A stretch of 55,475 nt of DNA from a virus (lineage: Duplodnaviria; Caudoviricetes): IMG/VR virus record IMGVR_UViG_3300025430_000028, positions 1 through 55,475 of that record; one strand, written 5' to 3'. A program made the position numbers and the translations under genes. Positions 701 through 51,391 of the stretch are shown in pieces (within the stretch, counting starts at the first letter, position 1; each line of letters opens with the position of its first letter). The notes beneath the pieces were generated by a model. That model made no database searches. It worked only from the letters and a program-made list of their open reading frames with translations, and had not been told where the DNA came from.

Positions 701-1252
701 TTATTTGAGCCGATAGTAGGTAAAATCATGTCTATTTACGGTATCTTCATTGGGCATTATGTATTTTTCGTAGGTTTTTCCGTACCATATTTCCTTAATG
801 CAATATTGGGGAACTGCTACTTTATGTATTCCTATGTATAATTTTATTCCTTTCCAAGATACTTTTATTTTACAAGGGGCGATTTGTCGGCAATGATTTT
901 CTAGGGCTAACCATGTTTTACGGTTGAGATTGGGGGTCTGCGGAAATGCGTTACATAGGTCGAACGAGTTATATTCATCTTCCTTGCTTCCATTCATATC
1001 GCTTGCATCTGCATTATGGCCAATATCATATCCTGAATGAGCATAATCTTTGGTTAAATTAGGTCTGTCTCCTGTTGCATGAAAGCCATTTTCCCTACCA
1101 ACGGCCTTAGTATGGGCAGAACATATCCATATTACTGAATCTGGTATTTTAGTATCTATGTTATAATAGCTAGTATATGCAGGATATTTTACTACTTCTT
1201 GTTGAGGGTAGATAGTATAGGGAATTAATATGGCGATTAGTAGTTTAAGCAT
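701..1252 (-). CDS. secreted DNA/RNA non-specific endonuclease (NucA/Serratia-type, His-Me finger)
   Basis: SGYDIGH motif (DRGH-like), NAFPQ..LN...W..LE motif, hydrophobic N-terminus. Confidence 0.85.
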   Translation of the reverse strand: MLKLLIAILIPYTIYPQQEVVKYPAYTSYYNIDTKIPDSVIWICSAHTKAVGRENGFHATGDRPNLTKDYAHSGYDIGHNADASDMNGSKEDEYNSFDLCNAFPQTPNLNRKTWLALENHCRQIAPCKIKVSWKGIKLYIGIHKVAVPQYCIKEIWYGKTYEKYIMPNEDTVNRHDFTYYRLK

Positions 1253-1760
1253 TGTATTTTATTGAGTTTACTCGATTAATCCACCCATCCAGAAATTTAG
1301 ATTGAGATGGATTGGCCGATACTATGTTATTGTATTTTTCTATTCTTTTTGCCTTTAATTTATTGAATAAGTCCTGTGGGTCATGTGCGTTTATAGCTGC
1401 AAGGGTCTTATTACCAAAAAGACCATCTATTGTAACTCCTACTATTTCTTGAATGTATTTTGTTATTGTGGGCTTCCCGTTATTTATTCCTCCATCTACT
1501 ATATATTCTGCTAGGGATTGGTTTTTGATAGCATCGGCCATAAAATAATCCCAATATAGCTTTTTATAAATGGCATAAGCATCATTTTTAGTTAAATTTT
1601 TTAAATCAGCACAAGTTTTAGTGGTATCTTTTGAGAAAGTCTTTAAATCATCTAGGATAATACCCATTTTAGTGCATCCTCCATTATCAGTAGGGTCATT
1701 TTCGTATGCAGTTCCTTCTGAATTTAGTATTTTAGGGAATAACAAAGAAAAGTCTGCCAT
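1245..1760 (-). CDS. endolysin, glycoside hydrolase family 108 with C-terminal peptidoglycan-binding domain
   Basis: EG..YENDPTDNGGCTKMGI N-terminal motif, DGLFGNKTL, FLDGWINRV C-terminus. Confidence 0.9.
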   Translation of the reverse strand: MADFSLLFPKILNSEGTAYENDPTDNGGCTKMGIILDDLKTFSKDTTKTCADLKNLTKNDAYAIYKKLYWDYFMADAIKNQSLAEYIVDGGINNGKPTITKYIQEIVGVTIDGLFGNKTLAAINAHDPQDLFNKLKAKRIEKYNNIVSANPSQSKFLDGWINRVNSIKYNA

Positions 1761-1762
1761 TA

Positions 1763-2335
1763 TTATAAAGGTTTAATTCCTGAATAAATTTTATAAGACG
1801 CATATCCAAAAACAATAACTGCAAAACATATTAAAGCCCCTATGTATTTTTTATTTGCTGATTGCGCCGATTGTAGCACAGATGCTTGAGTGGCTACCGT
1901 TTCTATATCTTGTATATGTATTTTTTCATCATTAGCTATCTGGGTATCAAGAATAGCTATTTTTTGGTTATCTGCAATAGTATCTACTCTTGTTATGGTC
2001 TTAATGGTTATAATGGGCTTTATTTGGGCGATTAGAGCCGATTTAACGCTGTCAATATTCATTTCCTTAACAATGGCTGTATTAGCTAATTTTTGTCTTA
2101 AATCACTTAATTGAGCCGTATCTTCAAAAACAACAATAGCCGTATCATTTCTACCTACTTTTACTTCTGTTGGCACACATGGGTACAATTTATTTACTTC
2201 TGGTGCTACTTTATCAATTAAAGCTCTGCTACCAAGTACTCTATCTAAGGCTTGTTGATTCTTCTTTTCGGTACTACACCCAAAAAAAAGTAACCCCACT
2301 ATAACTAGCAGGGTTATATTTTTAAATTTATTCAT
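1763..2335 (-). CDS. probable unimolecular spanin
   Basis: N-terminal lipoprotein signal (LLFFG-C) plus C-terminal TM helix (YIGALICFAVIVFGYASY); adjacent to the endolysin. Confidence 0.7.
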   Translation of the reverse strand: MNKFKNITLLVIVGLLFFGCSTEKKNQQALDRVLGSRALIDKVAPEVNKLYPCVPTEVKVGRNDTAIVVFEDTAQLSDLRQKLANTAIVKEMNIDSVKSALIAQIKPIITIKTITRVDTIADNQKIAILDTQIANDEKIHIQDIETVATQASVLQSAQSANKKYIGALICFAVIVFGYASYKIYSGIKPL

Positions 2336-2338: not shown

Positions 2339-2605
2339 TTAAGCTTTTGGGGCGAATAATGCTTTTACCCATTTGATAATTAAATCTAAGACACCATTAG
2401 CAGGTACATATTGGCTAGGGATGATAGATAAAATTTCAGATACAATGGCTAAGATACCAGCAATTTTAGCTGCTACTGGCCAATGAGCTTCTGCTGCATC
2501 AATACCACCCTTAACAAATGCTACTGCGGTGCTATCTTGAGCTATTACGCTTCCTGCGATTAGTACCAAAATGATAGATAAAGATAATTTTAATGCTTTT
2601 TTCAT
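2339..2605 (-). CDS. small membrane protein (holin/antiholin candidate)
   Basis: Signal-peptide-like N-terminus ending VIA-Q, a second hydrophobic helix, lysis-cassette position. Confidence 0.55.
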   Translation of the reverse strand: MKKALKLSLSIILVLIAGSVIAQDSTAVAFVKGGIDAAEAHWPVAAKIAGILAIVSEILSIIPSQYVPANGVLDLIIKWVKALFAPKA

Positions 2606-2860: not shown

Positions 2861-3112
2861 TTACTTCTTTTCTTCTTTAGGCACTTGCGGTTGTAATTGG
2901 TCTACTAATTCTTTTTGAAACTTAGATAATGAATCACAAACTGGGTTAGCATACTTAGAAGGAGCATCTGAATTTTTAAGTAATTGTTTTGCTGCTTCGA
3001 TAAGTTGTAGTTTGTCATTCCAAGTTTTAGCATCATACTTCACCGTTAATTCTTTTTCTGCAAAGGCGAATAGTAGGATACAACCTAATACCAATAGTCC
3101 TGTTTTTTTCAT
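2861..3112 (-). CDS. small helical protein with signal peptide, fibre-associated position
   Basis: MKKTGLLVLGCILLFAFA-E signal; lies downstream of the fibre gene. Confidence 0.7.
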   Translation of the reverse strand: MKKTGLLVLGCILLFAFAEKELTVKYDAKTWNDKLQLIEAAKQLLKNSDAPSKYANPVCDSLSKFQKELVDQLQPQVPKEEKK

Positions 3113-3125: not shown

Positions 3126-3479
3126 TTATTTTGTTGTTGGTGTTACGAATGTTACGTTAATTTGTTGTCCTGTAAAATAAAACGGATAGGTGTTACTTCC
3201 GTTCCATCCTTGATAATCTGCACCGCCAATAGTAGCATTACCATCTATATGAGTTGCTCCTGTAGAATCTACTAAAGCCCAATAAAGGGTGCAAGTAGTC
3301 TTTAAGTTATCAAAAATTGACCTTACCCCCAAATAAGTACAAGGGATAGTATCAGAGTATTTAGCCATTACAGGATTAATAGGACATACTGCAATACCAA
3401 AATGTTTAGTAGTATCTATTACTTGGCTTTTTGATTGAAAGGCGATTGCTAATAAGGCAATTACTAATAATTTTTTCAT
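3126..3479 (-). CDS. exported fibre-associated protein (possible chaperone/accessory); start corrected to ATG 3479
   Basis: MKKLLVIALLAIAFQSKS-Q signal peptide; the TTG start in the track overlaps a TAAATTTG promoter at 3498-3505. Confidence 0.7.
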   Translation of the reverse strand: MKKLLVIALLAIAFQSKSQVIDTTKHFGIAVCPINPVMAKYSDTIPCTYLGVRSIFDNLKTTCTLYWALVDSTGATHIDGNATIGGADYQGWNGSNTYPFYFTGQQINVTFVTPTTK

Positions 3480-3516
3480 AATTTGATTATTCTTTGACAA
3501 ATTTAATGTATTTTAT

Positions 3517-6500
3517 TTAATTTTTTATACGCTTTTGTAAATCTTCTACTTTTTTCTCTAATTCCTGAATTGCATTAATTAATATAGGCACTAAATTCTC
3601 ACTCTTAATACCCAAATATTCAGAATCTTTAGATATAGGTTTTACTATTTCAGGTATTACTTTCTGCACTTCTTGGGCTAATAATCCGTATGTTAAGTTT
3701 TCTTTATTAGCATCTGAATTATAGTAGAATTGTTTGGTATTTAGCTTCATTACTGCATCAAGACCATAATTTAATGGAGATATTGAGTTTTTAAGTCTTA
3801 TATCAGAAGGGTTAGTATTTGTCAAAAATCCACTACTTGAATATACTGTTCCTGTTCCTAAACTATTAACTACTGCTCCATTTAACCATGCAGTACCATA
3901 TACTTGAAATTTATATCCATTATCTGTAGTTGTTCCCACAAGTAAATTACCAGAACTTGTAAATCTCATGCCTTCTAATTGAGATGAACCATATTGCCAT
4001 ATGTGTGCTGTATTTGCAGAATAATAATTATATCCACTACCTACGTTATCTATTGCTACATATCCTGCTACTCCTACTGCTTTAAATGGTGTTACTCCTG
4101 CTGTAGAATTATTAATGTGTAATAATGCACTTGGACTTGTAGTACCTATACCTACATTGCCTGTGCTACCATCAATTCTAAATCTTTCTAGAGTAAGAGG
4201 AATTGAACCATTCCATTGTGTAGTAGATAAAGTAAAAATGCTTGAAGCAGCTCCACCTACAGGATTATATATATTTTTTAATACGATAGGATATTGAACT
4301 CCATTCCAAACTTGTGTTAAATTTAATTGAGATGAAGTTGAACTACTAGATGAGCCTAATATATTTACTACAGTTGGTCCTGCATCATTTCCTGTTCTAG
4401 TATTTCCAAAAATACCATCCGTTCCTGCCGTTACACTACTTGAGAATGTAGCAGCTCCTCCTGCACCTAATTTAAAAATAGTTGAATATGTTAATGAACT
4501 ATAACTTGATTGTGGACTTGACCATTGAAAAAGTAAATTGGCTGCATCAGCATCAGTATCATATCTAACTGAAAATCCTTGTGACGATGTTGCTCCTGCG
4601 TGACCTAAAAATTGCAATAATGCACCACCATTTGTAGTTGATTTGCTTCCATATAATCCTTCAAAAGAATAAGTTGCTCCTGAATAATAACTTCCAGTTA
4701 ACGAACCATTAAAACTTGTTGCATTTACACTACTTGAGAATGTAGCAGCTCCTGTGGAGGCTATGGTAAGTCTAGGAGTGCTACCTGTTTGTAAATTTAA
4801 TCCATTAGAATTTTGGAATATACCACTTACATAAGAACCTGCACCATTAAAAAATATACCTCCATTGCTATAAGTAAACATATCTGAATTAAAATAGCTT
4901 GTCCCATTAACCTGTAGCTTATACCCTGCATCTGTTTGGGTATTTATCAAAAAATTTCCAGAGCTTGTAAGTCTTGCCTTTTCAGTAGAAGTGTTTGAAT
5001 ATCCCAATAATAAGTTATTAGCACTATTCCATGTTATCGCAAAATCTCCTGCTACTGCTCCTGTAATATAGTTATTAGACTGAGTAGCCATCCCGTATAA
5101 AGCTGAGTATGTGGGGGATGCTATGTTATCCGCAAATCTTATCGAAGGTCCTGTTCCTGTTACCGCCATTTGGTTATCCGCACTTGCACTATAAACTACA
5201 AATCGCCTTCCACCATTAGTTGTAGTATTAACCATAAACCCTGTACCATCATCATAAGCTGTACTTGTATTAACAGTATTTGTTCCTGTCCATTTGGTTA
5301 TATAGTTAGTTGTTCCTGTTCCTGTTACGGGATTGGTAAGAGCATTTTGTTTATTATTAAAAGTATTCCAATCTGTAGAACTTAAATAACCATTACTACT
5401 TGTAGTTGCTTGTGAAATAGAAATAGCCGGAGTAGTACCACCCGAAGATGAAATAGGAGAAGTCCCTGTTACGCTTGTAACATAAGTTCCTGCTGCCTGA
5501 TATTGCGGAATATTTAAAACCCCTGTACTTGTAGTATAGGTAGCTGCTCCACTTGTTCCTGTTGTTGTTAAACTTATTGCATTTCTTGGATAGAATGTTT
5601 TATATCCTGCAAGCATCGAGGCAGTATCAGTATAATTAACCTTTAAAGCAGTAACACCTAAAACATTATTAAATCGAGGTTGTATTGTTGCAGTATCCGC
5701 ATTTAAAGCTACTATCCCTGTACGGTAGTTATTCAACATTGAGGCTGTATCAGTATAGTTTACTTTTGTAGCTACCACCCCTAATACATTATTAAATCGA
5801 GGTTGTATTGTAGCTGTATCTGCATTAAGGGCTATTATACCTGTTCTATAATTATTTAACATCGAGGCTGTATCAGAATACTTAACATCTACTCCTCTAC
5901 TACTATCTACATAATTTTTATCTACCTTAGTTCTTGAAGTATAAGATGACCCTAAATTTGAAGTATAAGTATCTAATCCCGAAGAATTAATTGTACCTGT
6001 AGTGCTAAACCCTGCTGTTCCTGCTGTGCTATTGGAAGGGAAGAAAACATGGACATCCCATTGACCTGCTGAAAAGCTATTAGATAATAAAATAACCTCA
6101 ACATATCCCCCCGAAGGAACTGTATATAACGCACCCCCACCATATTGTTGTATTGCTAAACCACCTGTAGCATTATTGTTAAATTGATAAGTATTTCCTA
6201 TTGCGATAGTTGTTGCATTGGGTAATACTATTGTAGTTGTAGTTGGTGCACCACTTGTTATATACCAGTTCTGTGATGATGAACTTGTCATATTAGTAGT
6301 AGAACCACCTGCTACCCCTGTTACTGCAGATTGAAACCCATTAGCTGAAACAAAACCTGTAAAATTAGCAGTAGTTCCATTTAAATTACCCGTTAAAGTA
6401 CCACCACTTAAAGGCAAATAACCGCCACTTACTGACCTTGTATAAGGTGCTAACATTGCAGCCGTATCACTATACTTAACTCTTGCAGCAATTTGAGCAG

Positions 6501-8046
6501 CTTGATAGATAGTATCGGCATTAAGAGCAATAATACCATTAAGATAATTATTAAGCATCGAAGCAGTATCAGTATAATTTACTTTTAAAGCTAAAGCTGC
6601 ATTAGCAGTTGCAGTCCTGTAATATGGACTAAGCATGGAAGCCGTATCTGTATAATTAACTTTAGTTGCAAGTTGCGTGTTAATGTAATTAAGCCGACCA
6701 TAAGGAGAAAGCATAGAAGCAGTATCGGTATATTTAACGTAATTTCCTAAAGCTGTAGTTCTTGCATAAGGGCTTAGCATTGAAGCTGTATCTGTGTACT
6801 TTACTCTCGCAGCAATTTGGGCTGCTTGGTAAACTGTATCTGCATTTAAAGCAATTATTCCTGTACGGTAATTTGCCAACATTGAAGCAGTATCGCTATA
6901 TTTTACAGCAGTTAAACTTCTTTGATAAGGAGAAAGCATACTAGAAGTATCTGTATATTTAACCCTAGCTGCAATCTGTGCTGCTTGATATACTGTATCA
7001 GCGTTTAATGCAATAATCCCATTTCTATAATTGGCTAGCATATTAGCTGTATCTGAAATATTAACTTTTAAATTAACATTAGCAGACACAGAATCTATAC
7101 CTTTTTGTCGCCATAATCTAGTAGAAATAACAGTAGTATCTATTGCAAGAGTTCCCGAAGTAGTAATTGTTCCACCTGTAATACCTGTATTGTTATTAGT
7201 AGCCACACTTGTAACTGTACCACCTGTAGATGGACTAGAGTTTGTTATAACACCTGTTGATGGGTTATAGCTTATTCCTGTTCCGGCACTAATCGCATTT
7301 CTAGGATAATAAGTCTTATACCCACTAAGCATTGAAGATGTATCAGAATACTTTACTAATGAAGGAAGCCATCCTAATGAAATCCATTTATTAGTAGTAT
7401 CAGATGTTAAGGCAAAAGTGCCACTATTATCAGGTAAATATATTGTTCTATTTGCTGTAATATTTGTTGCATATATCCCTGCTCCTACTAAAGAACTATT
7501 ATTTATAGTAATACCATATATATTTGAAGTTATCTGCCCATTGAATATTGTATTATAAGAAAATGTTTTATTCCCACCTATTGATTCATTACCTGTTAAA
7601 TGTACGACATTATTATTCCTTGCATAAGGGCTTAGCATTGATGCGGTATCTGAATATTTAACGTATGACCCTAATTGATATGTTTTAGCATATGGAGCTA
7701 ACATTGAAGCAGTATCGCCATATTTTACTAAGGAAGGCAACCAACCGCTACTTAACCATTTACCAGTTGTATCTACCTTTCTAAGATAAGGATTTAACAT
7801 TGAGGCTGTATCGGTATATTTAACATATCCTGATACATTTATTGGGGAAGTCCATTTAGTACCATCACATATATACATTGTATTATTGATGATAGCTATA
7901 CCATTAACCTTTAAATAAGACGTATCGCTAATTTGTAACGCTAATCTATTAAATGAATTACCATACGCTTGTGATGGTGTAAATTGTTGCCCTTTAGCGA
8001 TTACTAAAAAAACAAAACTAAATAATATTAAACATACTTTTTTCAT
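3517..8046 (-). CDS. long tail-fibre-like protein with signal peptide, DTASML repeats and C-terminal intramolecular chaperone (peptidase S74-type) domain
   Basis: SDIRLKNSI...GLLAQEV...AIQEL tail; GNVGIGTTSP/GAATFSSSV fibre repeats; N-terminal MKKVCLILFSFVFLVIAKG-Q. Confidence 0.85.
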   Translation of the reverse strand: MKKVCLILFSFVFLVIAKGQQFTPSQAYGNSFNRLALQISDTSYLKVNGIAIINNTMYICDGTKWTSPINVSGYVKYTDTASMLNPYLRKVDTTGKWLSSGWLPSLVKYGDTASMLAPYAKTYQLGSYVKYSDTASMLSPYARNNNVVHLTGNESIGGNKTFSYNTIFNGQITSNIYGITINNSSLVGAGIYATNITANRTIYLPDNSGTFALTSDTTNKWISLGWLPSLVKYSDTSSMLSGYKTYYPRNAISAGTGISYNPSTGVITNSSPSTGGTVTSVATNNNTGITGGTITTSGTLAIDTTVISTRLWRQKGIDSVSANVNLKVNISDTANMLANYRNGIIALNADTVYQAAQIAARVKYTDTSSMLSPYQRSLTAVKYSDTASMLANYRTGIIALNADTVYQAAQIAARVKYTDTASMLSPYARTTALGNYVKYTDTASMLSPYGRLNYINTQLATKVNYTDTASMLSPYYRTATANAALALKVNYTDTASMLNNYLNGIIALNADTIYQAAQIAARVKYSDTAAMLAPYTRSVSGGYLPLSGGTLTGNLNGTTANFTGFVSANGFQSAVTGVAGGSTTNMTSSSSQNWYITSGAPTTTTIVLPNATTIAIGNTYQFNNNATGGLAIQQYGGGALYTVPSGGYVEVILLSNSFSAGQWDVHVFFPSNSTAGTAGFSTTGTINSSGLDTYTSNLGSSYTSRTKVDKNYVDSSRGVDVKYSDTASMLNNYRTGIIALNADTATIQPRFNNVLGVVATKVNYTDTASMLNNYRTGIVALNADTATIQPRFNNVLGVTALKVNYTDTASMLAGYKTFYPRNAISLTTTGTSGAATYTTSTGVLNIPQYQAAGTYVTSVTGTSPISSSGGTTPAISISQATTSSNGYLSSTDWNTFNNKQNALTNPVTGTGTTNYITKWTGTNTVNTSTAYDDGTGFMVNTTTNGGRRFVVYSASADNQMAVTGTGPSIRFADNIASPTYSALYGMATQSNNYITGAVAGDFAITWNSANNLLLGYSNTSTEKARLTSSGNFLINTQTDAGYKLQVNGTSYFNSDMFTYSNGGIFFNGAGSYVSGIFQNSNGLNLQTGSTPRLTIASTGAATFSSSVNATSFNGSLTGSYYSGATYSFEGLYGSKSTTNGGALLQFLGHAGATSSQGFSVRYDTDADAANLLFQWSSPQSSYSSLTYSTIFKLGAGGAATFSSSVTAGTDGIFGNTRTGNDAGPTVVNILGSSSSSTSSQLNLTQVWNGVQYPIVLKNIYNPVGGAASSIFTLSTTQWNGSIPLTLERFRIDGSTGNVGIGTTSPSALLHINNSTAGVTPFKAVGVAGYVAIDNVGSGYNYYSANTAHIWQYGSSQLEGMRFTSSGNLLVGTTTDNGYKFQVYGTAWLNGAVVNSLGTGTVYSSSGFLTNTNPSDIRLKNSISPLNYGLDAVMKLNTKQFYYNSDANKENLTYGLLAQEVQKVIPEIVKPISKDSEYLGIKSENLVPILINAIQELEKKVEDLQKRIKN
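5600..7830 (-). repeat. imperfect protein-level repeats (V-K/N-Y-T/S-D-T-A-S-M-L-x-x-Y), about 15 copies, in the fibre gene
   Basis: Counted by hand in the translation; the DNA copies inspected differ largely at synonymous positions. Confidence 0.9.
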
Positions 8047-8063
8047 AAACTTAATTACTGTTT

Positions 8064-9389
8064 TTATGGCAAATAAATAGTACCCATATCTTCTATTACA
8101 CCTGTTGCATTATAAGTTACAGTTCCAGTACCACCTGTTTTTACTGTTTTTATATTTATAGTATCCCCTTGTATTGAATTTATAATTATACTTGGGTATG
8201 TATAAAAATTAGCAGTACTAAAGCTGCCTAATACTATAGTTCTTGCAGTTCCTCCTTCATCATTAAAATTAACTACTACATTATATGTATTTAAACTATC
8301 TGCAATTACATTTATATTAACGTTTATTCTATAAGCATGAACATTACTAGGAAATGGTACTGTATATGATACAATACTTGCTAATGTATCTAAATTATCA
8401 GGTACTAAAGCTTCTGCTACTATAATCGGGGCGTTTGGTATGTCAGAAACCAAAGCTACTGTTCCTGTATTATCAGGAAATGTATAAGTATTACTAGAAG
8501 TTGCAGGGAATAATATAGAAGGAGAACCACCACCATTTAACCCAAAATTAAGACCTTCAAATCCAGTAGTGCTTGTACTATGAAATGTAGTATATCCTGA
8601 AATAGTTGATAAAGAGCCTGATGTAGATAATGCGAATGATTTATTTGAAATTATATTACTATCACTACGTAGATTATTTTTAAATCTACCAATCCCATTT
8701 ACATCTAACATGTATGTGCTAGGATTTGAAGTATAACCAACGGCCACATGATTACTACCATCATCTTGCATAATACTATTTGATAATCCTGTTGAGCTTG
8801 ACCATTTAGGTATAAATGCAGTAGTTCCCGAACCAGTTACCGTACCTGATGGGACTGAATATTGAGGAACATTTAAAACACCTGTAGATTGATTATATGT
8901 TGCAGCTCCGCTACTACCTGTAGTTGTTAATGATAAAGAAGCTCTTGGATAATAACTTTTATATCCATTTAGCATGGATGTTGTATCTGAATACTTAACT
9001 GATTGATTTGATATATATGCAATACTATCTACTACTTTTGTAGTATATGCTTTGGTACTAATTGACGTAGTATCAACACTAAAATTAGCACTAGCTAGTT
9101 TAAGACCATAACCATTAGTATAAGCTCCTCCATTATTACCTCCAAATGGCTTCCAGCTTTTACCTGTATATACGTATAATGTACTATCTGATAATCTAAA
9201 AGTAGATGCTCCTAGTCTATATGGCTTAAATGTAGTATCTCTTATTGGATTGAAAAAACCTGAATCGCATTGTAAATATTGCGTAAAATCATACCATTTG
9301 CCATTAAATAAAGTAGGAAGTCCTGTTGGGGACTGAGAATATCCTGCTATACTCACTAGGATGAATAAAATTAAAAATATTTTTTTCAT
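8064..9389 (-). CDS. second fibre-like protein with signal peptide, partly paralogous to the 1509 aa fibre
   Basis: MKKIFLILFILVSIAGYS-Q; shares the YPR.SLTTTG.SGAATY..STGVLN.PQY and VTG.GTT..I.KW segments with the long fibre. Confidence 0.75.
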   Translation of the reverse strand: MKKIFLILFILVSIAGYSQSPTGLPTLFNGKWYDFTQYLQCDSGFFNPIRDTTFKPYRLGASTFRLSDSTLYVYTGKSWKPFGGNNGGAYTNGYGLKLASANFSVDTTSISTKAYTTKVVDSIAYISNQSVKYSDTTSMLNGYKSYYPRASLSLTTTGSSGAATYNQSTGVLNVPQYSVPSGTVTGSGTTAFIPKWSSSTGLSNSIMQDDGSNHVAVGYTSNPSTYMLDVNGIGRFKNNLRSDSNIISNKSFALSTSGSLSTISGYTTFHSTSTTGFEGLNFGLNGGGSPSILFPATSSNTYTFPDNTGTVALVSDIPNAPIIVAEALVPDNLDTLASIVSYTVPFPSNVHAYRINVNINVIADSLNTYNVVVNFNDEGGTARTIVLGSFSTANFYTYPSIIINSIQGDTINIKTVKTGGTGTVTYNATGVIEDMGTIYLP

Positions 9390-10832: not shown

Positions 10833-13800
10833 TTATTTAGCTTCTGCAACTCTAAACCCTGTTGAACCAGAAATAGCTCCACTTAATATACCTTTAAGAA
10901 CATCATTAAGCTGAGATTCATCTGCTCCATTATCAATTGCAGATTGGTATGTCACCTTAGCAGCTTCGGCAACAGGTAATGGAGCTTTTTGAAATAAATA
11001 TTCCCAAGCGGTAAGTGTATGTTTACCTTTTTTTGGCTCATCTCCTATATATGGTAATGGATTACCAAAAAAATCAGACCTTGTAACTAAATCTACAGGA
11101 ATGGAATATCCCGGAGCTAGTTTACCTCTACCATACCCAATAGCTTTTTCACCTAATATATCTATTCTACTTTTCCCATAAAGTTCTTCTTGAGGTTTAA
11201 TAGCAGCTTTTGTCAATTCTTTTATAAAATTTAAGACTCCAATTTGACCAGAACTAGGGTCTATCATTAAATTACCAAATTTAAATTTAAGCCAATCAGA
11301 TTTAGAAGGGTCTAATAAATTTACTTTTTTATCAGGGTTCAATACACTTTGCAACCCTGCATTAGCTCCTAATAATATAGTCATAGTTGCTAATTGCTGA
11401 CCTACTCTGTTTGCCCATACTTTTGCAAAAGCTCTTTCTGCTGCTGTGGATTGACTAGGATTAGTTAATGCTTTTATAGCATAAGTAGTTGCTTGCACAG
11501 GATTCCTAGTTAATTTAGCCCATCTTGAAGCTTCCATACCTCCTGCAAATGTTACTTCATTTACCCATTTAGGTACATTTAAATTAGTAGCCCCTGTTGC
11601 GTTATTAATTAATCTAGCTATGCTTTTAGCTACTTCTGGGTCAGCCTTATCAGCTTCACTTAATTTATTAAACTCGCTATCAAATAACCCTTGTCTTAAT
11701 ACTTTAATAGCATTAAAACCTTTTTCCCCAGCAGCTCCTGCCTTTGATAAGAATCTAGGCATATATTTTTGAGATGTCTGAAATTCTTCTATATCTTTTG
11801 CAGATGTAGCATCAGGATTATTTTTTAACCCTGCTCTTTGAGCTGTAACGTAATTAGGGCTATGTTTAAGTTCATTAATAGCTTTTTGATAATTAGCCTC
11901 ACTACCATAAGCAAATTTCCATCCATTTAAAAATGCAGGTATAGTTTGTTTCCATGTTGAAGGCTGAAATAATGTCATACCAGCGTGAGTCCCAACAAAT
12001 ATACCACCATGACCAAAAACACTTATACTTCTAAATAAATTTGTAACTTTTCTAACTGATTTAGGTATCCCAGATAAAGCTTGTTCGTCAATCCAATTTT
12101 CAGTAGCAACTCTACCCCTATTATAATCATATTCACGTTTCCACATAGCATCTGAAATTCGTTGCGTTTTAGGAGTATTTATAGCTTCATTAACTTGTCT
12201 CCATGATAATCCTAAATCACTAGCCACATACCCAATCATATCTCTATAAGAAGCTCCTTTATCTAAATAAGTATCTTTAGCGTATTTCCAAATATCCTTA
12301 GATTCATCAATGTTAAATTTATTATCTCTTTTGTCTTTAAATTTATTTTGTAAATCATTTAATCTTTCTTCATTCTGTTTAGCTATTTCATCATCAGTTA
12401 AAGGCTTTTCACCTTTAGATTTTAAAATACCTAAATTTTTCTTTAAATCATATATATCATCATTTAATTTATCTATTTTTTGTTGCTGCTCAGGTGTTGG
12501 ATTTAAATTACTTTCTTTTTTTTGTTTAACTATCCCTCTTTCTAAATCATCTTTTTCTTTTTCAAGCAATCTTATTTTTCTATCTTCAGGAGTTTCTTTA
12601 ATTGCATCAGTATAATGCTGTGTTAAATCTTTTTCTAATTTATTTTTATCTTTATCTGATAATTTATTATACCATTCTGATTCTTTTATTTTATCCAAAA
12701 TAATAGCTACTCCATCTGCTATTTGTCCTGTTTTTTCAATAGCCTTAGCACCAAGTTCTACTAAGTCATTCCAAGACGCACCTTGTATTTGAATTGGGAT
12801 TTGATTACCATTTTCATCTGTAAACGTTAATGGCTTTGTTTTTAATTTTCTAAAAGTATCAGCATATTTTTTAGCTATTTCTGATAATTTCTTTTTAGGC
12901 TCATTTTCTACTCCTTCTCCTAAAAATTCTTTATTAGCTGCATCAACTGCATCTTTCTCAGCAACGGTTAATCTAGCTTTTCGTATTTGATTATCTTTAG
13001 TTAAAGATTTAGCTTTAGCTTCTTGCTCTTTTGTTAAAGCTTTTCTAGTAATAGCTTTAAATCTATTAGAAACTGCTTGAAAATCATCTGTATCTATATC
13101 TCTTTCACCTTGTAATGCAACAAAGCTTCTAGCTGCTTCTGTGCCAAGTAATTTAGTTTTTACAGCATATTCGGCAAGTTTGTTTAATGAATATTTATAT
13201 TCATCACTATCTATTCCAAATTCAGCAGCTACGGCATCTGATTCTTTTTTTAATTTTTCAAGTTGCGCTCTAGCTATAGATATTCTATCATGTAATGGTG
13301 CATTATAATCAGTAACATCATCAGGATTAGCTCCATTTTCTAAAAGAGTCCTTCCTCTGTCTGCATACCATTTTGGAGGGTAATATTGTCCTCTTATTGG
13401 TTCTGGTAAATTTAATTTTTTAGCTAAATTTGATAATGAACTATGTGAAACACCTACTAAATTTTTATCACCTTCCTCTACTCCTGTGGGAGCTTCGGTA
13501 CTTGTGGTTTTTTCATCATTGATAGTTTCCCCTTCCTTTTCTGCTTCTGGCTGCTCACCGACTTCTCCGGCAGGCTCTCCCCTTTGCTCGCCTGATTCCA
13601 CTCCTCCACGTTCACCCCCTGTTGCTCCAGTTTCTCCTTGTTGGCGTTGAAGTACGCTCTCTGCGCTTGGCTCTTGAATGGCATTTTTTGTTGTTTTTAT
13701 TGGTTCTTTTAATAAATTTTCTGCTTCTGATATTGGTATTAGTTGGGTTACTTTATTACCATTTTCATCTACCTTACTTACATTAACTAATCCTTTTCCT

Positions 13801-16800
13801 TTATTTATATTCTCTACAGTTCTTCCATCAGGCAATACAGCACCTTCTTTTAATTCAGATTCAGGTAATTCACCTTCCTCTTTTTTACCTAATTCTAAAA
13901 ATTTTTTAGTTGTTTCATCAGTCCATTTACCATCTGTCTCCTCTAAGGCCCTTAATGCTCTTGTAACCTTACTATGTGTTATAACGGCTGTTTCCTTTCC
14001 TAATTCATTTTTAGTATGGTCATACGCTTTTTCCATTCTATTTGTAAAACTATCAAATTTTTCAACTGTATTATCATTATTATATTCACCTTCAGTCCAT
14101 CCTTTTTCATCAAATGAGCCTTCGGGTTGACCATCATATCTACCTATATCGGCTGTTCTATAAATAGGATTTGATACGCTTTTAACTCCAGCAACTTCGG
14201 CTACTTTTTTACCAGTCTGTATTCCCCTTTCTACATCAGAATGTTCTACTGTAGTTAAATCTGGATTATTTTCTTTTATATAATTACCAATATCTTCAGC
14301 CTCTTGAAGTCCTTCAGGTGTTAAATGACTATCATCTTTTACTCCATTTTCTAGACCTTGCGCTGTTTTATTATCTTCCCCATGTTCAAATACTTTAGTT
14401 CCTGTAATTTCTATTGGCTGGACTTTACCTGCTCCTGTTGGTATTGGCTCTGCTTTAATTTCTTCTTTTTTGCTTGGTATCGCTTCTGTTATAAAAGTTC
14501 CTTTATAAACATCATCCATTTTATCTTTAATATCAGATAATCTTTTTGACATTGCATCCTGCAAATCTTTAGGTAAGTCTTTATTTAAATTACTTTCTAA
14601 ATCATCTTCTTGCATTTTTAAAAACATCAATTCATTCCTACTTTTATCATCTAATTTATTACCTTTAGCATCAACCATTGGTGTTTTTTCATAAACATCT
14701 TTTGCTCTTTGTATATTATCTCTTATTTGAGAAGCTTCTAATGGTTTTATAGTACCATCAGCTTCTTTTTGTTTTAATATACCTAATGCTTCTTCGCTAT
14801 TCTTACCTGCTAAATATAATTGTTCTTTTACCGCATCTGGAACATTTTTAGAAATTGCACCTATCCCAGTTCCAAATAATGCAAAATTCAATCCTTGTAA
14901 TATTTGTTGTTTTGCAAATTGATTATAATCAACATCTTTCCCATCAATCTTTTGCTGAATTAATTGTGAAGCCCCTAATATTGGTTGCATTTTAGCAGCA
15001 CCTAAAGCTCCTTCTTTTGCAGCTTCTGGTAGTTTTGAGAAAAAATCTTTTAATACACTTGGTTTATCTCTTAATGCAGTTAATATCTCATCATCACTTA
15101 ATTTATTTATAGCAATACCCATTGCGGTTTTAGTACCTGCTGCTGCTTTTATTCTTTCTGGGATATCACCAACTGTATATGCTAAAGCATTAATACCTGT
15201 ATTTGTAAAAGCTTTTAATCTTGGATTTGCTTCATTCTTAGCTGTAGCATTGGCTAATTCATCTTGATATGATGTAGCTAATACATTCCCAAATGTTGTA
15301 AATAATTTTTTACCTAATCCAGCAGTTGCTCCTCCACCTGTAAATGCTTCTGCTGCTATATAAGGGAATAAATCAGCAGCCATTTTACCTACCCCATAAA
15401 TTAATGTATTAGCTCCTACATTTAATCCTTCATCTGTTTTTTCTTGTGAATATTTATCTTTATTATCTATAAATAATCTAGCAACTTTTGTTTTTCTTTC
15501 TTCATCAGTTAATGTATAATCATTTTTAACTTCATCTATTTTATCTTGTAGCTCGTTATCTTTTAAAATTTTAAAATCTGGTAATGTAGTATTTGCTTGA
15601 GTAACATAAAGATTAGGCCCATTAACTTGCTCCCCTCCTAATGCATTTAATTGAGCTAATGCTTCCCCTTTTTGACTTCTAAATGGAGATGCTAGTAAAT
15701 TATATACACCTTGTCCTGTTTTATATGCATTATAAGCGGCTAAATTAGTTAAATAATCAACTCCTGTTTTTCTTTGTCCTAGTTCTTCTTGAGCTAATTT
15801 GTCTGCATCTAAATATGATATGTCAGGATATTTTACTGATAATTGTTTCATTTGCTCAGAAACATTATCCATTTTATCTTTATATTGATTTGCTTTTGCC
15901 AAATCATCTGGACTTAGACCATTTTGTTCTTTTGATTTTTTTACAAAATCATCATAATGAGATTTATTATTACTATATATTGTATTTAATCCAGTTTCTT
16001 CTAACTCTTTAAGCTTAGATTGTCTTGCTACATTAGCATAATAATCATTAGAAACATCTTCGTCTTTAAGATTTATATAATTAGATAATGCAGGTACTTC
16101 TTCTGGATGCTGTCTTGAATATAAATCAAATCCTATTGATTGAGCAGGATTAAGTCCGGGTATAGGATTATCTGTTCTTGATTTAACTGCGGCATCATTA
16201 CCATAAGCTAATGAGTGGTCTTTTACTAAATTTTTTAATGCATTTTGCTGGTCATCACTATTATCTATATATTTATGTATTAGATTTGTTGCATTATCAG
16301 TATCGGTTTTCTTTTGTTCATATGTCTTATCCACGCCCCCTGATTGCCCTGCACTTAATGCTGTTTTATCTGCATTTATTTCATCTATTTTTGAAGCCTT
16401 TAATTCAGGAGTTAAACTATTATCTTTATTTACATCTTCTATAGCATTATCCATTGCATTTATTAATGGATTCTGCCATTTTATACTAGAAACAGTTTGA
16501 TTGAATTTTACTTTATTATTTTTATATAAATCGGCTAAATATCCTTCACTACCATATCCAGAATTTGGGAGATTAGGTAAATCTGAAACAGCATCAGTAA
16601 AGTCAGTATCATATCCTTGACTTTTTAAATAATCTTTTATTTTTTTAGATTGTGCTACTTTTTCTTCATCTGGCTGAGTAGTTGAAACAACAGGGCCTCC
16701 AACAGTAGATGAGCTAGGCATATCTATTGTTTTAACAGCATTACCTAATTCTTTTGATTTTTTAGATAATTCTACTAATCCACCAATTAAATCAGCATCA

Positions 16801-17207
16801 TTTTCTGGAGATGGAGATTGTGATGGTAATCCTGATTGGGAGATATTTGTCGCACCACCTGCTGAACCAAGATTTTGAGGTTGTTGAGGTAACTGCTGAA
16901 CGTTTGCGCTTGGTTGTTGTTGGTTTTTTTTTTTTAATTGTGTAGCTTCTGGGAAGTATTGATTATAAAAATCAGATTTAGATTTTGTATATAACTTTTC
17001 ACCATCTGGCCCAACGGTATTAAATAAGTAATCTATATTATCTTTATTAGAATATTTTTGCTTAAAATCATTAAATGTTTTTGTATAAAGGCCTTCTTTA
17101 GATAACCCTTTCCATAGATTATATTTCGCATCTGTAGGAGTATTATCAACTTGTTGAGTAGGTTGTGGTTGTTCTTGCAAATTAATATCTTGTGTATCTA
17201 AAGCCAT
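10833..17207 (-). CDS. giant ejection/internal virion (polyvalent) protein containing a histidine-phosphatase-like domain
   Basis: 2124 aa, last of the ejection-protein series; Gly/Ala hydrophobic segments; EHG...LT.EG...SD..R..QT...THS motif set. Confidence 0.7.
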   Translation of the reverse strand: MALDTQDINLQEQPQPTQQVDNTPTDAKYNLWKGLSKEGLYTKTFNDFKQKYSNKDNIDYLFNTVGPDGEKLYTKSKSDFYNQYFPEATQLKKKNQQQPSANVQQLPQQPQNLGSAGGATNISQSGLPSQSPSPENDADLIGGLVELSKKSKELGNAVKTIDMPSSSTVGGPVVSTTQPDEEKVAQSKKIKDYLKSQGYDTDFTDAVSDLPNLPNSGYGSEGYLADLYKNNKVKFNQTVSSIKWQNPLINAMDNAIEDVNKDNSLTPELKASKIDEINADKTALSAGQSGGVDKTYEQKKTDTDNATNLIHKYIDNSDDQQNALKNLVKDHSLAYGNDAAVKSRTDNPIPGLNPAQSIGFDLYSRQHPEEVPALSNYINLKDEDVSNDYYANVARQSKLKELEETGLNTIYSNNKSHYDDFVKKSKEQNGLSPDDLAKANQYKDKMDNVSEQMKQLSVKYPDISYLDADKLAQEELGQRKTGVDYLTNLAAYNAYKTGQGVYNLLASPFRSQKGEALAQLNALGGEQVNGPNLYVTQANTTLPDFKILKDNELQDKIDEVKNDYTLTDEERKTKVARLFIDNKDKYSQEKTDEGLNVGANTLIYGVGKMAADLFPYIAAEAFTGGGATAGLGKKLFTTFGNVLATSYQDELANATAKNEANPRLKAFTNTGINALAYTVGDIPERIKAAAGTKTAMGIAINKLSDDEILTALRDKPSVLKDFFSKLPEAAKEGALGAAKMQPILGASQLIQQKIDGKDVDYNQFAKQQILQGLNFALFGTGIGAISKNVPDAVKEQLYLAGKNSEEALGILKQKEADGTIKPLEASQIRDNIQRAKDVYEKTPMVDAKGNKLDDKSRNELMFLKMQEDDLESNLNKDLPKDLQDAMSKRLSDIKDKMDDVYKGTFITEAIPSKKEEIKAEPIPTGAGKVQPIEITGTKVFEHGEDNKTAQGLENGVKDDSHLTPEGLQEAEDIGNYIKENNPDLTTVEHSDVERGIQTGKKVAEVAGVKSVSNPIYRTADIGRYDGQPEGSFDEKGWTEGEYNNDNTVEKFDSFTNRMEKAYDHTKNELGKETAVITHSKVTRALRALEETDGKWTDETTKKFLELGKKEEGELPESELKEGAVLPDGRTVENINKGKGLVNVSKVDENGNKVTQLIPISEAENLLKEPIKTTKNAIQEPSAESVLQRQQGETGATGGERGGVESGEQRGEPAGEVGEQPEAEKEGETINDEKTTSTEAPTGVEEGDKNLVGVSHSSLSNLAKKLNLPEPIRGQYYPPKWYADRGRTLLENGANPDDVTDYNAPLHDRISIARAQLEKLKKESDAVAAEFGIDSDEYKYSLNKLAEYAVKTKLLGTEAARSFVALQGERDIDTDDFQAVSNRFKAITRKALTKEQEAKAKSLTKDNQIRKARLTVAEKDAVDAANKEFLGEGVENEPKKKLSEIAKKYADTFRKLKTKPLTFTDENGNQIPIQIQGASWNDLVELGAKAIEKTGQIADGVAIILDKIKESEWYNKLSDKDKNKLEKDLTQHYTDAIKETPEDRKIRLLEKEKDDLERGIVKQKKESNLNPTPEQQQKIDKLNDDIYDLKKNLGILKSKGEKPLTDDEIAKQNEERLNDLQNKFKDKRDNKFNIDESKDIWKYAKDTYLDKGASYRDMIGYVASDLGLSWRQVNEAINTPKTQRISDAMWKREYDYNRGRVATENWIDEQALSGIPKSVRKVTNLFRSISVFGHGGIFVGTHAGMTLFQPSTWKQTIPAFLNGWKFAYGSEANYQKAINELKHSPNYVTAQRAGLKNNPDATSAKDIEEFQTSQKYMPRFLSKAGAAGEKGFNAIKVLRQGLFDSEFNKLSEADKADPEVAKSIARLINNATGATNLNVPKWVNEVTFAGGMEASRWAKLTRNPVQATTYAIKALTNPSQSTAAERAFAKVWANRVGQQLATMTILLGANAGLQSVLNPDKKVNLLDPSKSDWLKFKFGNLMIDPSSGQIGVLNFIKELTKAAIKPQEELYGKSRIDILGEKAIGYGRGKLAPGYSIPVDLVTRSDFFGNPLPYIGDEPKKGKHTLTAWEYLFQKAPLPVAEAAKVTYQSAIDNGADESQLNDVLKGILSGAISGSTGFRVAEAK
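13478..13684 (-). CDS. small basic protein MPFKSQAQRAY..., nested out of frame in the giant ejection gene
   Basis: Strong A-rich start context (aataaaaacaacaaaaaATG); N-terminus resembles MPFKS.AQR small phage proteins; locally higher GC. Confidence 0.55.
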   Translation of the reverse strand: MPFKSQAQRAYFNANKEKLEQQGVNVEEWNQASKGESLPEKSVSSQKQKRKGKLSMMKKPQVPKLPQE

Positions 17208-28877: not shown

Positions 28878-29750
28878 TTATTTGTCTTGATAAAAAAAGA
28901 CATGTCCGCTACGAATCGCCTTACCGTTATTATATTGTGCAGCTCTATTAATAGTTGTTTTTGGTATTCCTAATTCATCTGATGCCTCTTTAGCTGATGG
29001 ATATAATTTCTCTAATCCATCTGGAGATATGCTACGAATCGCCCTTTTAACGGTCTTAGTTTTTATTTCTTTAACTTCCATTCTTAATGGATACTCATCA
29101 CTTAATTTATATCTTACTAAATATCTTCCATCAATCCAACTACCATATAGTACACTATCCTTAACGGTACCAAGTTTTACTCCTAATTTATTAGCGCAAT
29201 TAGTAAGTGAGTCATACTCGCCAATAAGAACCCCATCACTTCCATAAACAATGCAAGCTCTTATAACTGCTAATCTTCCTTTTTCTACGCCCCATTCGGG
29301 TATATTTATATTTTTATCTTTATTTCTAATCTTAGCTTTTTCACTCATTATATCTTTTGATTCATCGCTATGCTTATGCCCATAAAAAGGATTTCCGTCT
29401 GATGTATATCTTTCACTTTGTTGCTTTCTTTGTTCAGTTTTATGCATCCAAGAACATCTTTGACCATCTCCTCCTCTTGTCATATTCATGCCTAAATCAT
29501 TGTCCTGATAGTAAGTATTCAATTCCTTAATCCAATAAATCTCTCTATCGTTTAATAAATCATCTTCAACTTCTTCTATTACTTCTAAAAAATGATTATC
29601 CCATCCATGCTTTCTAATACTATTAATAAGAACATAATTCTTATCTTTTTTAATAGAAGCTTTGTGAGAATTTACTCTTTTTCTAAGATTATATGTTTTA
29701 CCAACATAAATTTTTCCCGAAGGACTTGTTAATTTGTATATAACTCCCAT
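28878..29750 (-). CDS. free-standing GIY-YIG homing endonuclease with NUMOD3/NUMOD1-like DNA-binding repeats
   Basis: GVIY...IYVGKT; N.T.GGDG; NPFYGHKHSDESK; YDSL...A..LG and YPSAKEAS..LGI. Confidence 0.88.
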   Translation of the reverse strand: MGVIYKLTSPSGKIYVGKTYNLRKRVNSHKASIKKDKNYVLINSIRKHGWDNHFLEVIEEVEDDLLNDREIYWIKELNTYYQDNDLGMNMTRGGDGQRCSWMHKTEQRKQQSERYTSDGNPFYGHKHSDESKDIMSEKAKIRNKDKNINIPEWGVEKGRLAVIRACIVYGSDGVLIGEYDSLTNCANKLGVKLGTVKDSVLYGSWIDGRYLVRYKLSDEYPLRMEVKEIKTKTVKRAIRSISPDGLEKLYPSAKEASDELGIPKTTINRAAQYNNGKAIRSGHVFFYQDK

Positions 29751-29865: not shown

Positions 29866-31293
29866 CTATGCAGATTGTACTTGGATGAACTGATTAGCAG
29901 CTGCAACCCTTATACCCCTGTATGTTATCATTTCAACGTGGTCACGCATTGTTCCATCGGTAGGGTTCTTAGAACCACCACCCCATTGCCATACTCTGAT
30001 TCCGTTACCTACAGTTCCACCCATTGGAGGTTGTTGGTACATAACAGTGATGTTTTTGTAAACCTTAGTAGCATCTTTTGCATCACGTGCAGTACCCATT
30101 GGGCAGATGATACCAAAATCTCTAAACGCATCATTTGTTGGAGTCTTACCAGTATAAGTTTCGGTGTTGAATTGTTTGTACTTCTTAACATCGAACTTGT
30201 AACCATCAATTTGGATTGATTGTACACCGTAGTTGATACGAGCTTCTTCTGAATTTTCGTTCTTACCCCAAACCCATGCACCAGCAGGGAATTCTTTGAA
30301 GATACCGTCAGAGAAGTTTTGTCTTTGATAAACGTCTTGTAACCAAAGGTTATCTTTAGCACAACCGTTTACGTCCATGATACGAGTGATTTCATGCAAT
30401 TTAGCAATATCAAGTACACCCGGAGTATAACCTACAGTTTCTCCTCTAGCAGTAACCTGAGAGATGAAACCTTGAGTACCTAATGAACCATTGATATTTG
30501 TATTGTTCTGAACATCACCACGCATTAATTTTTGCTCAATGTTATTCAAGAAACGTTGGTTAGATTTAACTAAGCCTTTGTAAGTGAAATAACTTGTTCC
30601 AGCTTGGTTACCACCTGCCATTTCTGAACCAGAAACTCCACTATTGTAGAATACTTCTGTCATTTCAGCTAAGTCAGTTGCTGCCCAGCTTTCACGCATT
30701 TGAGTAACGTTATTGTTATACTTAACGTCTAAGTGGATTAAAGGATTGATTTGGCTAGAAGCTTCACCAACGTCTGTATTACCACCGAAGATTAAGATTT
30801 CACCAGCAGCCAAGTTAACACTACCAGCAGATACGAAAGCTTGAGTAGTTTGTTTTGGAGCAACAGTAAAAGTGAAAGCACCCGGAGTAGTTGTATCCAA
30901 AGTAAGGATAACACCTTCAATGTTAGAAGATGCGATACGTACAGTTTCACCAACACGTAAAGGAGTTTCGGTGCTTGTATAGTAATCAGCAGAAGAAATA
31001 GATAAAGTAACAGTTGCACCAGCAGCAGGAGAGCTAACTTGGTTCAAGTTGGTTACAGCAACCATTAACTTACCACGAGATTCAAACCAAAAGAAGTTTT
31101 GGTTTTTTACTTCTTCCATTCCACCATATGTAGCAAGCCACATAAAGAATTCTTCAGAACCATATTTTTCTACGTATTTATCGTAGTACTGAGGAGTCAA
31201 TAACTGTAAGTCAGAAATCAACTGTTGATTTACACCACCTGCGAGACTAATCGCACCGGGCTGCAAAATATTCGATGTAGGTATCCCTGCCAT
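29866..31293 (-). CDS. major capsid protein (crAss-like lineage)
   Basis: 475 aa after the scaffold gene; YVEKYG...FFWFE.RGKL N-terminal pattern; biased high-expression codon use; followed by a terminator. Confidence 0.85.
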   Translation of the reverse strand: MAGIPTSNILQPGAISLAGGVNQQLISDLQLLTPQYYDKYVEKYGSEEFFMWLATYGGMEEVKNQNFFWFESRGKLMVAVTNLNQVSSPAAGATVTLSISSADYYTSTETPLRVGETVRIASSNIEGVILTLDTTTPGAFTFTVAPKQTTQAFVSAGSVNLAAGEILIFGGNTDVGEASSQINPLIHLDVKYNNNVTQMRESWAATDLAEMTEVFYNSGVSGSEMAGGNQAGTSYFTYKGLVKSNQRFLNNIEQKLMRGDVQNNTNINGSLGTQGFISQVTARGETVGYTPGVLDIAKLHEITRIMDVNGCAKDNLWLQDVYQRQNFSDGIFKEFPAGAWVWGKNENSEEARINYGVQSIQIDGYKFDVKKYKQFNTETYTGKTPTNDAFRDFGIICPMGTARDAKDATKVYKNITVMYQQPPMGGTVGNGIRVWQWGGGSKNPTDGTMRDHVEMITYRGIRVAAANQFIQVQSA

Positions 31294-51384: not shown

Positions 51385-51391
51385 TCTAGTA

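Follow-up and report, generated by a model that had tools for sequence, protein, structure and literature searches.

The window analysed here is the whole of the linear IMG/VR virus record IMGVR_UViG_3300025430_000028 (55,475 nucleotides; guanine plus cytosine (G+C) content 31%; about 51% complete by CheckV), and nearly all of its genes lie on the minus strand. Two neighbouring genes encode fibre-like proteins, P0001 and P0002, in which a predicted signal peptide is combined with an array of the O-glycosylation tripeptide, or sequon, of Bacteroidota. The reading that we prefer, to which we assign a probability of about 0.62, is that these fibres are exported and cut before a glutamine, and that the host attaches O-glycans to the threonines of their shafts. 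The features on which it bears, with positions in the window, are the following:

3517..8046, minus strand: P0001, long fibre-like protein of 1509 amino acids (open reading frame; PHROG match; repeat region with 572 relatives in the database)
7990..8046, minus strand: predicted signal peptide of P0001, residues 1–19, MKK and a hydrophobic core with Q at +1 (from sequence and a rule-based call)
5620..7812, minus strand: sequon-bearing shaft of P0001, residues 79–809, with 22 strict sequons in diverged repeats
5614..5886, no strand: the sole repeat still discernible at the DNA level, with a period of 123 bp, 2.2 copies and 80% matches
3808..5619, minus strand: distal part of P0001, residues 810–1413, with zero strict sequons
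3640..3807, minus strand: Peptidase_S74 intramolecular chaperone domain of P0001, residues 1414–1469 (Pfam PF13884)
8064..9389, minus strand: P0002, short fibre-like protein of 441 amino acids, with 8 strict sequons at residues 51–411
9336..9389, minus strand: predicted signal peptide of P0002, residues 1–18, with Q at +1 (rule-based call)
3126..3479, minus strand: P0003, small signal-peptide protein encoded directly after the fibre gene, with 3 sequons

A strict sequon is defined throughout as D-[ST]-[AILMTV], and each protein was compared with 500 shuffles of its own composition. P0001 contains 22 strict sequons against 5.43 ± 2.22 in its shuffles, of which 0/500 reach 22. All 22 start between residues 79 and 807, and the remaining 700 residues contain none, in agreement with the original prediction, which had placed about 22 in the first ~820 residues and none beyond. 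Residues 1–820 thus hold 22 sequons against 3.43 expected, with 3 copies of the reversed motif, and residues 821–1509 hold 0 against 2.14, with 1 copy of the reversed motif; at such a low expectation, the sequon-free distal half of P0001 is not significant when taken alone. The D-[ST]-x tripeptides of P0001 number 29, including 3 DTS as well as the 22 strict sequons.

The repeat unit of the shaft reads [VL][NK][YI][ST]-D-T-[AS]-x-M-L-x-x-Y in diverged form. The type ..V[KN]Y[ST]-DT[AS]-xML..Y occurs 15 times, alongside the other repeat types ..ALNA-DT[VIA].., ..KV-DTT-GKW.. and ..AI-DTT-VIS... The presence of a single tandem array at the DNA level implies that the units are old and have been maintained at the protein level rather than recently duplicated. 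Because the units are copies of one motif, the 22 sequons are not 22 independent events and the P0001 count is the weaker evidence; statistically, exported proteins unrelated to the fibres carry more weight, as described below.

The C-terminal end of P0001 resembles that of a tail fibre. PF13884 matches residues 1414–1469 with an expectation value (E) of 3.6e-13 and 50 bits (cut-off 22), and residues 1340–1508 are matched by the PHROG tail fibre families phrog_5668, 5481 and 33119. A tblastn search of 50,697 cultured phage records matched 315, and in the 40 listed the matches, to tail fibres of many phages, cover only residues ~1256–1509. A blastn search with the fibre region returned two chance-like matches of 90 bases.

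P0002 holds 8 strict sequons against 1.85 ± 1.26 in its shuffles, with 0/500 reaching 8. Its residues 123–190 are 54% identical to the P0001 stretch encoded at 5461-5664, and the two proteins form one BLAST family. No Pfam or PHROG match was obtained for P0002, Peptidase_S74 included, and it has no tblastn match in the same cultured phage records. Its database relatives in its own length class number 21, of which 2 are full-length.

Predicted signal peptides and the repeat family

Signal peptides were called by a simple rule of our own together with a check for a Q-rule-like cleavage site. The N termini of P0001, P0002 and P0003 each run from MKK through a hydrophobic core to a small residue followed by Q, a pattern that excerpts of two papers describe for Bacteroidota signal peptidase I substrates as the 'Q-rule' (PMC5837995; PMC10653852). 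None of the three signal peptides contains a strict sequon, the 22, 8 and 3 motifs all lying outside them.

The repeat region of P0001 has 572 database relatives at E ≤ 1e-3 among 8000 scored proteins, and our homologue analyses cover the 120 listed. A signal-peptide-like N terminus is present in 108 of these, with a Q-rule-like site in 108/108, and the 108 differ considerably in their mature N termini. The other 12 comprise seven fragments starting inside the repeat, two starting inside the signal peptide and three ambiguous cases. In the viral set, consisting of 80 related viral loci and the window, a signal peptide is found in 37/37 repeat proteins with an intact N terminus, two rule misses having been corrected by eye, and the sole fibre-family member without one has no repeat and only 2 sequons. 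The predicted co-occurrence of sequon repeats with signal peptides is therefore seen both in the viral set and among the listed homologues. A Q-rule-like site is present in 33/33 rule-positive repeat proteins and in 37/38 fibre-family proteins with an intact N terminus; the frequencies in cytoplasmic open reading frames (ORFs) are 59/392 and 15/129.

An alternative explanation of these N termini is that they reflect a wrongly assigned start or a tail-anchoring helix, in which case the proteins would be cytoplasmic and their sequons irrelevant. To our knowledge, tailed-phage fibres are otherwise cytoplasmic, and we know of no fibre manufactured by way of export and glycosylation; our signal-peptide calls, moreover, rest on our own rule. 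However, the next methionine of P0001 is residue 57, no further methionine lies near the start of P0002, and sequon enrichment tracks the signal peptide. The succession of MKK, hydrophobic core, small residue and Q in 108/120 listed homologues, despite their differing mature N termini, is likewise that of the Q-rule as given in the excerpted source (PMC5837995). We regard a cytoplasmic location as very improbable.

The 120 homologues contain 1066 repeat units when these are anchored only on x-x-x-.-M-L-.-.-Y. The aspartate is present in 1061 units and the threonine in 1060, and the third residue is A in 738, S in 237, T in 59, L in 14, G in 10, D in 4, E in 1 and V in 1. In the Pfam, NCBIfam and PHROG libraries used, no model covers the repeat, and its repeat-rich relatives give only spurious sub-threshold matches (PPR, DNA_gyraseA_C and others). 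Many homologues carry a precomputed assignment to PF26696, 'PTL_trimer', as do look-alike Atlas clusters (score 0.87), which serves as a lead only. In our Pfam scan it has no match on P0001, P0002 or P0010, and a literature search for PTL_trimer or PF26696 found no paper of that name.

Bacterial genomes also contain the repeat, at 38 loci. The label is Bacteroidota for 37 of these, which come mostly from Sediminibacterium, Rurimicrobium and other Chitinophagaceae. The remaining locus is labelled Caulobacter and has a G+C content of 46%; as that of Caulobacter is ~67%, this locus is probably mis-binned, and the outcome favours the predicted restriction to Bacteroidota. In these loci the repeat is found in signal-peptide proteins of 830–3572 amino acids, the repeat-rich ones with 40–87 sequons and others with as few as 7–9. 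One of them, encoded on a Sediminibacterium chromosome (L014 6767-14926), is a signal-peptide protein of 2719 amino acids with 87 sequons. Its gene neighbours are a fatty-acid desaturase, an esterase, GHL10 and a fucosidase, and there are no phage genes within 6 kb on each side. The chromosomal and phage occurrences together mark the repeat module as an extracytoplasmic building block common to Bacteroidota cells and phages.

Sequon density and predicted export

To compare sequon density between classes of protein, ORFs from the viral set were classed by the signal-peptide rule, and near-duplicates were removed at 60% identity. The controls were the expectation from the composition of each protein and the reversed tripeptide.

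Small signal-peptide proteins (<300 amino acids, <2 repeats; 50 families), n = 72: 146 sequons against 33.7 expected, 4.3x; reversed motif 34
Repeat fibres, n = 33: 476 sequons against 144 expected, 3.3x; reversed motif 202
No signal peptide, n = 527: 396 sequons against 388 expected, 1.0x; reversed motif 476

The original prediction had proposed this comparison of signal-peptide and cytoplasmic ORFs, and the outcome agrees with it (4.3x against 1.0x, with the reversed control at 1.0x), as do those of its other computational checks that were run. When one protein is taken per family and the fibre family is left out, 49 signal-peptide proteins hold 65 sequons against 20.9 expected (Poisson p = 1e-14), and 273 proteins without a signal peptide hold 114 against 101.5. 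Among the small signal-peptide families other than the fibre family, 25/34 exceed expectation and 17/34 reach at least 3x; the reversed motif does so in 3/34. Direct observations comprise the counts, the rule-called signal peptides, how specific the enrichment is and how it follows export.

In the small signal-peptide proteins, the position before [ST][AILMTV] favours D alone (ratio 4.46; E, 1.14; N, 0.86). The position after D[ST] favours I (6.1), T (4.5), L (4.4), A (3.8), V (3.8) and, less strongly, S (2.3), C (2.3) and F (2.1), with D, E, G, K, N and P at 1 or below. Where a signal peptide is lacking, the values are mostly close to 1 (between 0.36 and 1.63 at the position after D[ST], with the extremes resting on small counts). 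A 2025 review of Bacteroidota O-glycosylation gives the third residue as L/I/V/T/A/S/M and occasionally G/F/C, with D almost obligatory and E untolerated; it also states that motif sites in non-cytoplasmic proteins are almost fully occupied, that engineered motifs become glycosylated, across species too, and that motif excess is mainly a Bacteroidota feature (PMC12871550). The enrichment profile matches these published preferences, including the intolerance of E. Since the same profile is present in unrelated small exported proteins, a structural quirk of the fibres cannot be its cause. Phage lambda, used as a check on the rule, gave 9 signal-peptide calls, false ones included, and 3 sequons against 1.8 expected; these numbers are too few, so the point about other phyla rests on the statement in the review excerpts (PMC12871550).

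The link to export is also seen within families. In family 20, which is encoded directly after the fibre and includes P0003, three signal-peptide members hold 9 sequons against 1.7 expected, and the six that lack one hold 2 against 1.6. Family 40 has 7 against 1.7 with a signal peptide and 0 against 0.7 without. Family 20 (with members in L055, L065, L067, L072, L079 and L081) exists in two forms, one with a signal peptide and ~3 sequons and a shorter one with neither, and the short form sits behind fibres that themselves have signal peptides.

Along the length of 31 non-redundant fibres of at least 500 amino acids, the ratio of observed to expected sequons in successive tenths is 8.3, 4.7, 4.5, 3.0, 3.0, 3.2, 1.3, 1.1, 1.0 and 0.58. 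The sequon pattern of a coated stalk and a bare tip is thus a property of the whole family, and the polarity first noted in P0001 extends from the first tenth to the last across these fibres.

The D-T-(A/S) core could instead be structural only, for example a helix N-cap in a trimeric shaft, with the threonines buried or the shaft folding too fast for glycosylation. The near-invariant aspartate and threonine, tighter than a glycosylation site strictly requires, would suit such a role equally well, and the exported virion proteins of the cultured phage phi18:3, described below, do without sequons. One unit of P0001 also has a weak likeness to a helical N terminus, that of lactococcal BppL: residues 132–183 align to lactococcal receptor-binding proteins over their N-terminal helix and neck (phmmer against the Protein Data Bank, E = 1e-3), and BppL_N (PF18338) matches residues 145–163 with 22 bits, below its cut-off of 25.8. 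What a structural role leaves unexplained is the recurrence of the same motif, with the published residue preferences, in the unrelated small exported families listed above, its lack in signal-peptide-free members of the same families, and a third residue that is A, S, T or L in 1048/1066 units. Together with the almost full occupancy of motif sites in exported proteins reported in the review excerpts (PMC12871550), these observations make a purely structural origin of the motif improbable.

Gene neighbourhood and lysis cassette

Matches to PHROGs place the following virion genes in the window:

35795-37873: terminase
33247-35709: portal
29866-31293: capsid-type virion protein

PHROGs also name further 'virion structural proteins', one of them of 1325 amino acids, and a DNA primase/helicase. 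Searches with the capsid and portal proteins retrieve, at 21–26% identity, only phages infecting Flavobacterium, Cellulophaga, Tenacibaculum and Maribacter and a single unclassified record, and phi40:1 is matched by the terminase, the portal, the capsid protein and the 1325-amino-acid virion protein of the window. The window is best explained as most of the genome of an uncultured short-tailed Bacteroidota phage, a distant relative of the Cellulophaga phages phi38:1 and phi40:1. Indirect evidence on the host comes from the Q-rule signal peptides, the hosts of these related cultured phages and the 37/38 repeat loci labelled Bacteroidota.

The P0001 gene lies on the same strand as the terminase, portal, capsid and large virion genes, follows them and precedes the lysis genes. 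In order, the end of the module comprises a protein of 2124 amino acids, two small ones, P0002, P0001, small proteins and the lysis genes. No match to a PHROG tail-fibre family besides that of P0001 was found among 30 window proteins scanned. A phage-encoded glycosyltransferase was also considered, and a Pfam scan of 20 window proteins gave no match to such a family; glycosylation would therefore be performed by the host system.

Between P0001 and the lipoprotein gene lie three small proteins with signal-peptide-like starts, P0003 among them, and one protein of 65 amino acids. The small proteins and the lysis genes are as follows:

2861..3112, minus strand: signal-peptide protein of 83 amino acids, with 1 sequon
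2339..2605, minus strand: protein of 88 amino acids with a signal peptide followed by Q, a C-terminal hydrophobic segment and, where the mature protein begins, a DST sequon (family 51)
1763..2335, minus strand: lipoprotein with a lipobox (..FFGC), a C-terminal membrane segment and 4 sequons
1245..1760, minus strand: endolysin (Glyco_hydro_108 and PG_binding_3), with no signal peptide and 1 sequon
701..1252, minus strand: DNA/RNA non-specific endonuclease (Endonuclease_NS), with a signal-peptide-like start ending QQ and 2 sequons against 0.41 expected

P0003, counted over 3126-3500, holds 3 sequons against 0.50 in its shuffles (0/500 reach 3), and the lipoprotein holds 4 against 0.65 (2/500 reach 4); the capsid protein of 475 amino acids has 1 against 1.18. 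With these values, the hand counts of the original prediction (22 in the long fibre, 8 in the 441-amino-acid protein, 3 in P0003, 4 in the spanin and 1 in the capsid protein) were all reproduced exactly. The combination of a lipobox and a C-terminal membrane segment makes the lipoprotein resemble a unimolecular spanin.

The spanin-like family (family 2) is the sequon-richest of all, with 61 sequons against 7.5 expected and 9 copies of the reversed motif in 14 non-redundant members (L049-L120). One site column is largely conserved in it, and the others shift among members. The Endonuclease_NS protein (Pfam E = 1.5e-17) closes the lysis cassette and looks like an exported phage nuclease.

The giant virion protein of 2124 amino acids (10833-17207, minus strand) has 0 sequons against 6.65 expected, with 9 copies of the reversed motif. 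Other giant virion proteins are also sequon-poor, such as those at L060 2359-8553 (1 against 4.4, reversed motif 6) and phi40:1 gp101 (L122 31418-36493; 1 against 5.3, reversed motif 8). This scarcity was singled out post hoc, and phi18:3 gp123 (5 against 6.3) does not display it. One possibility is that giant virion proteins crossing the periplasm at infection could be avoiding host glycosylation.

Elsewhere in the window there are two GIY-YIG homing-endonuclease-like genes (28878-29750 and 51827-52555, both on the minus strand), one of which is an insertion into the virion module immediately downstream of the gene for the capsid protein. The window further encodes a C-5 cytosine DNA methylase at 45118-46071, a Methyltransf_23 protein at 40390-41058 and genes for transfer RNAs Asp and Gln at 51297-51649, all on the minus strand. 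A scan for sigma-70 promoters and terminators was uninformative.

Proposed maturation route and known systems

In the route that we propose, P0001 and P0002 would be made as Sec precursors and cut before glutamine by signal peptidase I, following the Bacteroidota 'Q-rule'. The mature fibres would fold in the periplasm, where the C-terminal S74 chaperone of P0001 would release itself, and the general O-glycosylation system of the host would load the threonines of the D-T-(A/S) repeat core in the proximal 800 residues, so that the shaft would be coated with glycans and the distal tip left bare. Such glycosylation may extend to the other exported phage proteins, namely P0003, the spanin-like lipoprotein and the nuclease. 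The fibres could then join the virion once the holin has opened the inner membrane or lysis has taken place. We infer the attachment of glycans, the exposure of the threonines and the membership of P0001 and P0002 in the virion, this last by analogy with gp085-087 of phi18:3.

Several further observations weigh against export with glycosylation, in addition to those that favour a structural role. Our rule missed at least three obvious signal peptides and gave positive calls for some tape-measure-like proteins (family 18), and 3/120 homologues (P0011, P0023 and P0069) may lack a signal peptide. An AlphaFold2 monomer model of the P0001 shaft (residues 300–560) has a predicted local distance difference test (pLDDT) score of 29.5, and a model of P0002 based on an 11-sequence alignment has a pLDDT of 33, both too low for use. 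The first tenth of the fibres is their sequon-richest part, which is odd for a tail-docking domain, and in the bacterial loci signal-peptide proteins reach 1.56x against 1.34x for the rest. Lastly, gp085-087 of phi18:3 contain 3 sequons in total against 9.6 expected, from which it follows that exported proteins need not be rich in sequons.

A broader version of the proposal is a tentative one, and somewhat doubtful. Many Bacteroidota tailed phages might build their host-recognition fibres outside the cytoplasm, as Sec-exported, pyroglutamate-capped proteins that are coated with host O-glycans along arrays of D-T-A repeats and join the DNA-filled particle at holin opening or after lysis. Glycosylation would be tuned in both directions: sequons would be packed into shafts, spanins and other exported proteins and kept off receptor-binding tips and giant internal virion proteins.

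Were the export and glycosylation of P0001 and P0002 to hold, a tailed phage would be exploiting the general protein glycosylation of its bacterial host on its own proteins, a virion component would mature in the periplasm, and the textbook account of purely cytoplasmic tail assembly would be revised. It would bear on how host range is predicted and phages are engineered in Bacteroidota and on the reading of metagenomic phage genomes, and fibres made in Escherichia coli, or without the signal peptide, would miss their glycans. With the sequon-rich spanin-like proteins, this question extends to the machinery of lysis. A direct test of the claim is possible, since the cultured phage phi18:3 has signal-peptide proteins reported in its virions.

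A rival account accepts export and glycosylation and takes the fibres not for virion parts but for surface or secreted proteins, comparable to the mosaic adhesive trimer (MAT) fibres of Bdellovibrio or to the chromosomal repeat proteins of Chitinophagaceae, that might act in adhesion, receptor masking or as decoys on infected or neighbouring cells. Virions are assembled in the cytoplasm, the N-terminal tenth of the fibres is their sequon-richest part, and the fibre N termini have no similarity to those of the phi40:1 fibres. The same repeat is, in addition, found in the Sediminibacterium chromosomal protein of 2719 amino acids, with its cellular neighbours. The succession of a signal peptide, an N-terminal domain, a fibre and an optional S74 domain is also the architecture of cell-surface MAT proteins (excerpts of PMC10769870). 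The MAT fibres of Bdellovibrio bacteriovorus resemble the window proteins in having a signal peptide, a conserved N-terminal domain, a trimeric fibre (putative for the window proteins), a variable tip and, in some, S74; they differ in being cellular and from another phylum, and the string 'glycosyl' is absent from the paper (PMC10769870). Their only sequence link to the repeat family is a sub-threshold match of the NCBIfam MAT family model NF053851 on one Sediminibacterium protein (20.9 bits, below the cut-off of 60), the model having no match on P0001 or P0002.

Set against this account, the fibre genes stand last among the virion genes, with the lysis genes following directly, and P0001 gives the only PHROG tail-fibre match among the window proteins scanned. 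In phi18:3 (KC821620.1; L127 2892-8584), gp085, gp086 and gp087 occupy the same position directly before the lysis genes, each has a signal peptide followed by Q, and the record annotates them as virion proteins from tandem mass spectrometry (MS/MS). Over its last 59 residues, gp086 shares 49% identity with a fibre belonging to the repeat family. The three proteins are without a DTASML-type repeat, holding 1 sequon against 3.6, 1 against 3.1 and 1 against 2.9, and our literature search found no comment on their signal peptides. This phage supports the idea that exported proteins may be virion parts, co-purification being an alternative. On balance, we favour fibres that join the particle over fibres that act apart from it and judge the surface-protein account to be rather unlikely.

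The fibres gp085 and gp087 of phi40:1 (KC821612.1) are virion fibres by MS/MS, and gp085 ends in an S74 chaperone, like P0001. They differ in having no signal peptide (starting MARIKNT..), and their sequon counts are 5 against 5.1 and 1 against 2.9. These two fibres without a signal peptide are not sequon-dense, as export-dependent glycosylation had been predicted to require.

Our literature search found no paper in which tail fibres of Bacteroidota phages are described as having signal peptides or as glycosylated by the host, which accords with the original remark that no description of such glycosylation of tail fibres was known to its author. The nearest published remark concerns Porphyromonas gingivalis phages, which have genes, including those of spanins, with Gln-exposing Bacteroidota signal peptides (PMC10367356). 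These Q-rule proteins differ from ours in being proteins of unknown function rather than fibres, and 'glycosyl' occurs 0 times in that paper (PMC10367356). The known substrates of general Bacteroidota O-glycosylation are non-cytoplasmic proteins with D-(S/T)-(L/I/V/T/A/S/M), and the window proteins are alike in predicted export and motif; unlike the bacterial substrates, they are phage-encoded, and their sites are arrayed in a repeat. The word 'phage' is absent from the review that describes those substrates (PMC12871550). In sequon density, the viral exported proteins, at 3.3-4.3x, stand above the 1.56x of the sampled bacterial signal-peptide proteins. The glycans of mycobacteriophage virions are added by the phages' own cytoplasmic glycosyltransferases. 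Archaeal viruses use host N-glycosylation, according to excerpts of a further source (PMC10384203). The fibres described here would resemble both in being glycan-bearing virion proteins and would differ in that the periplasmic O-glycosylation of a bacterial host would serve to modify them.

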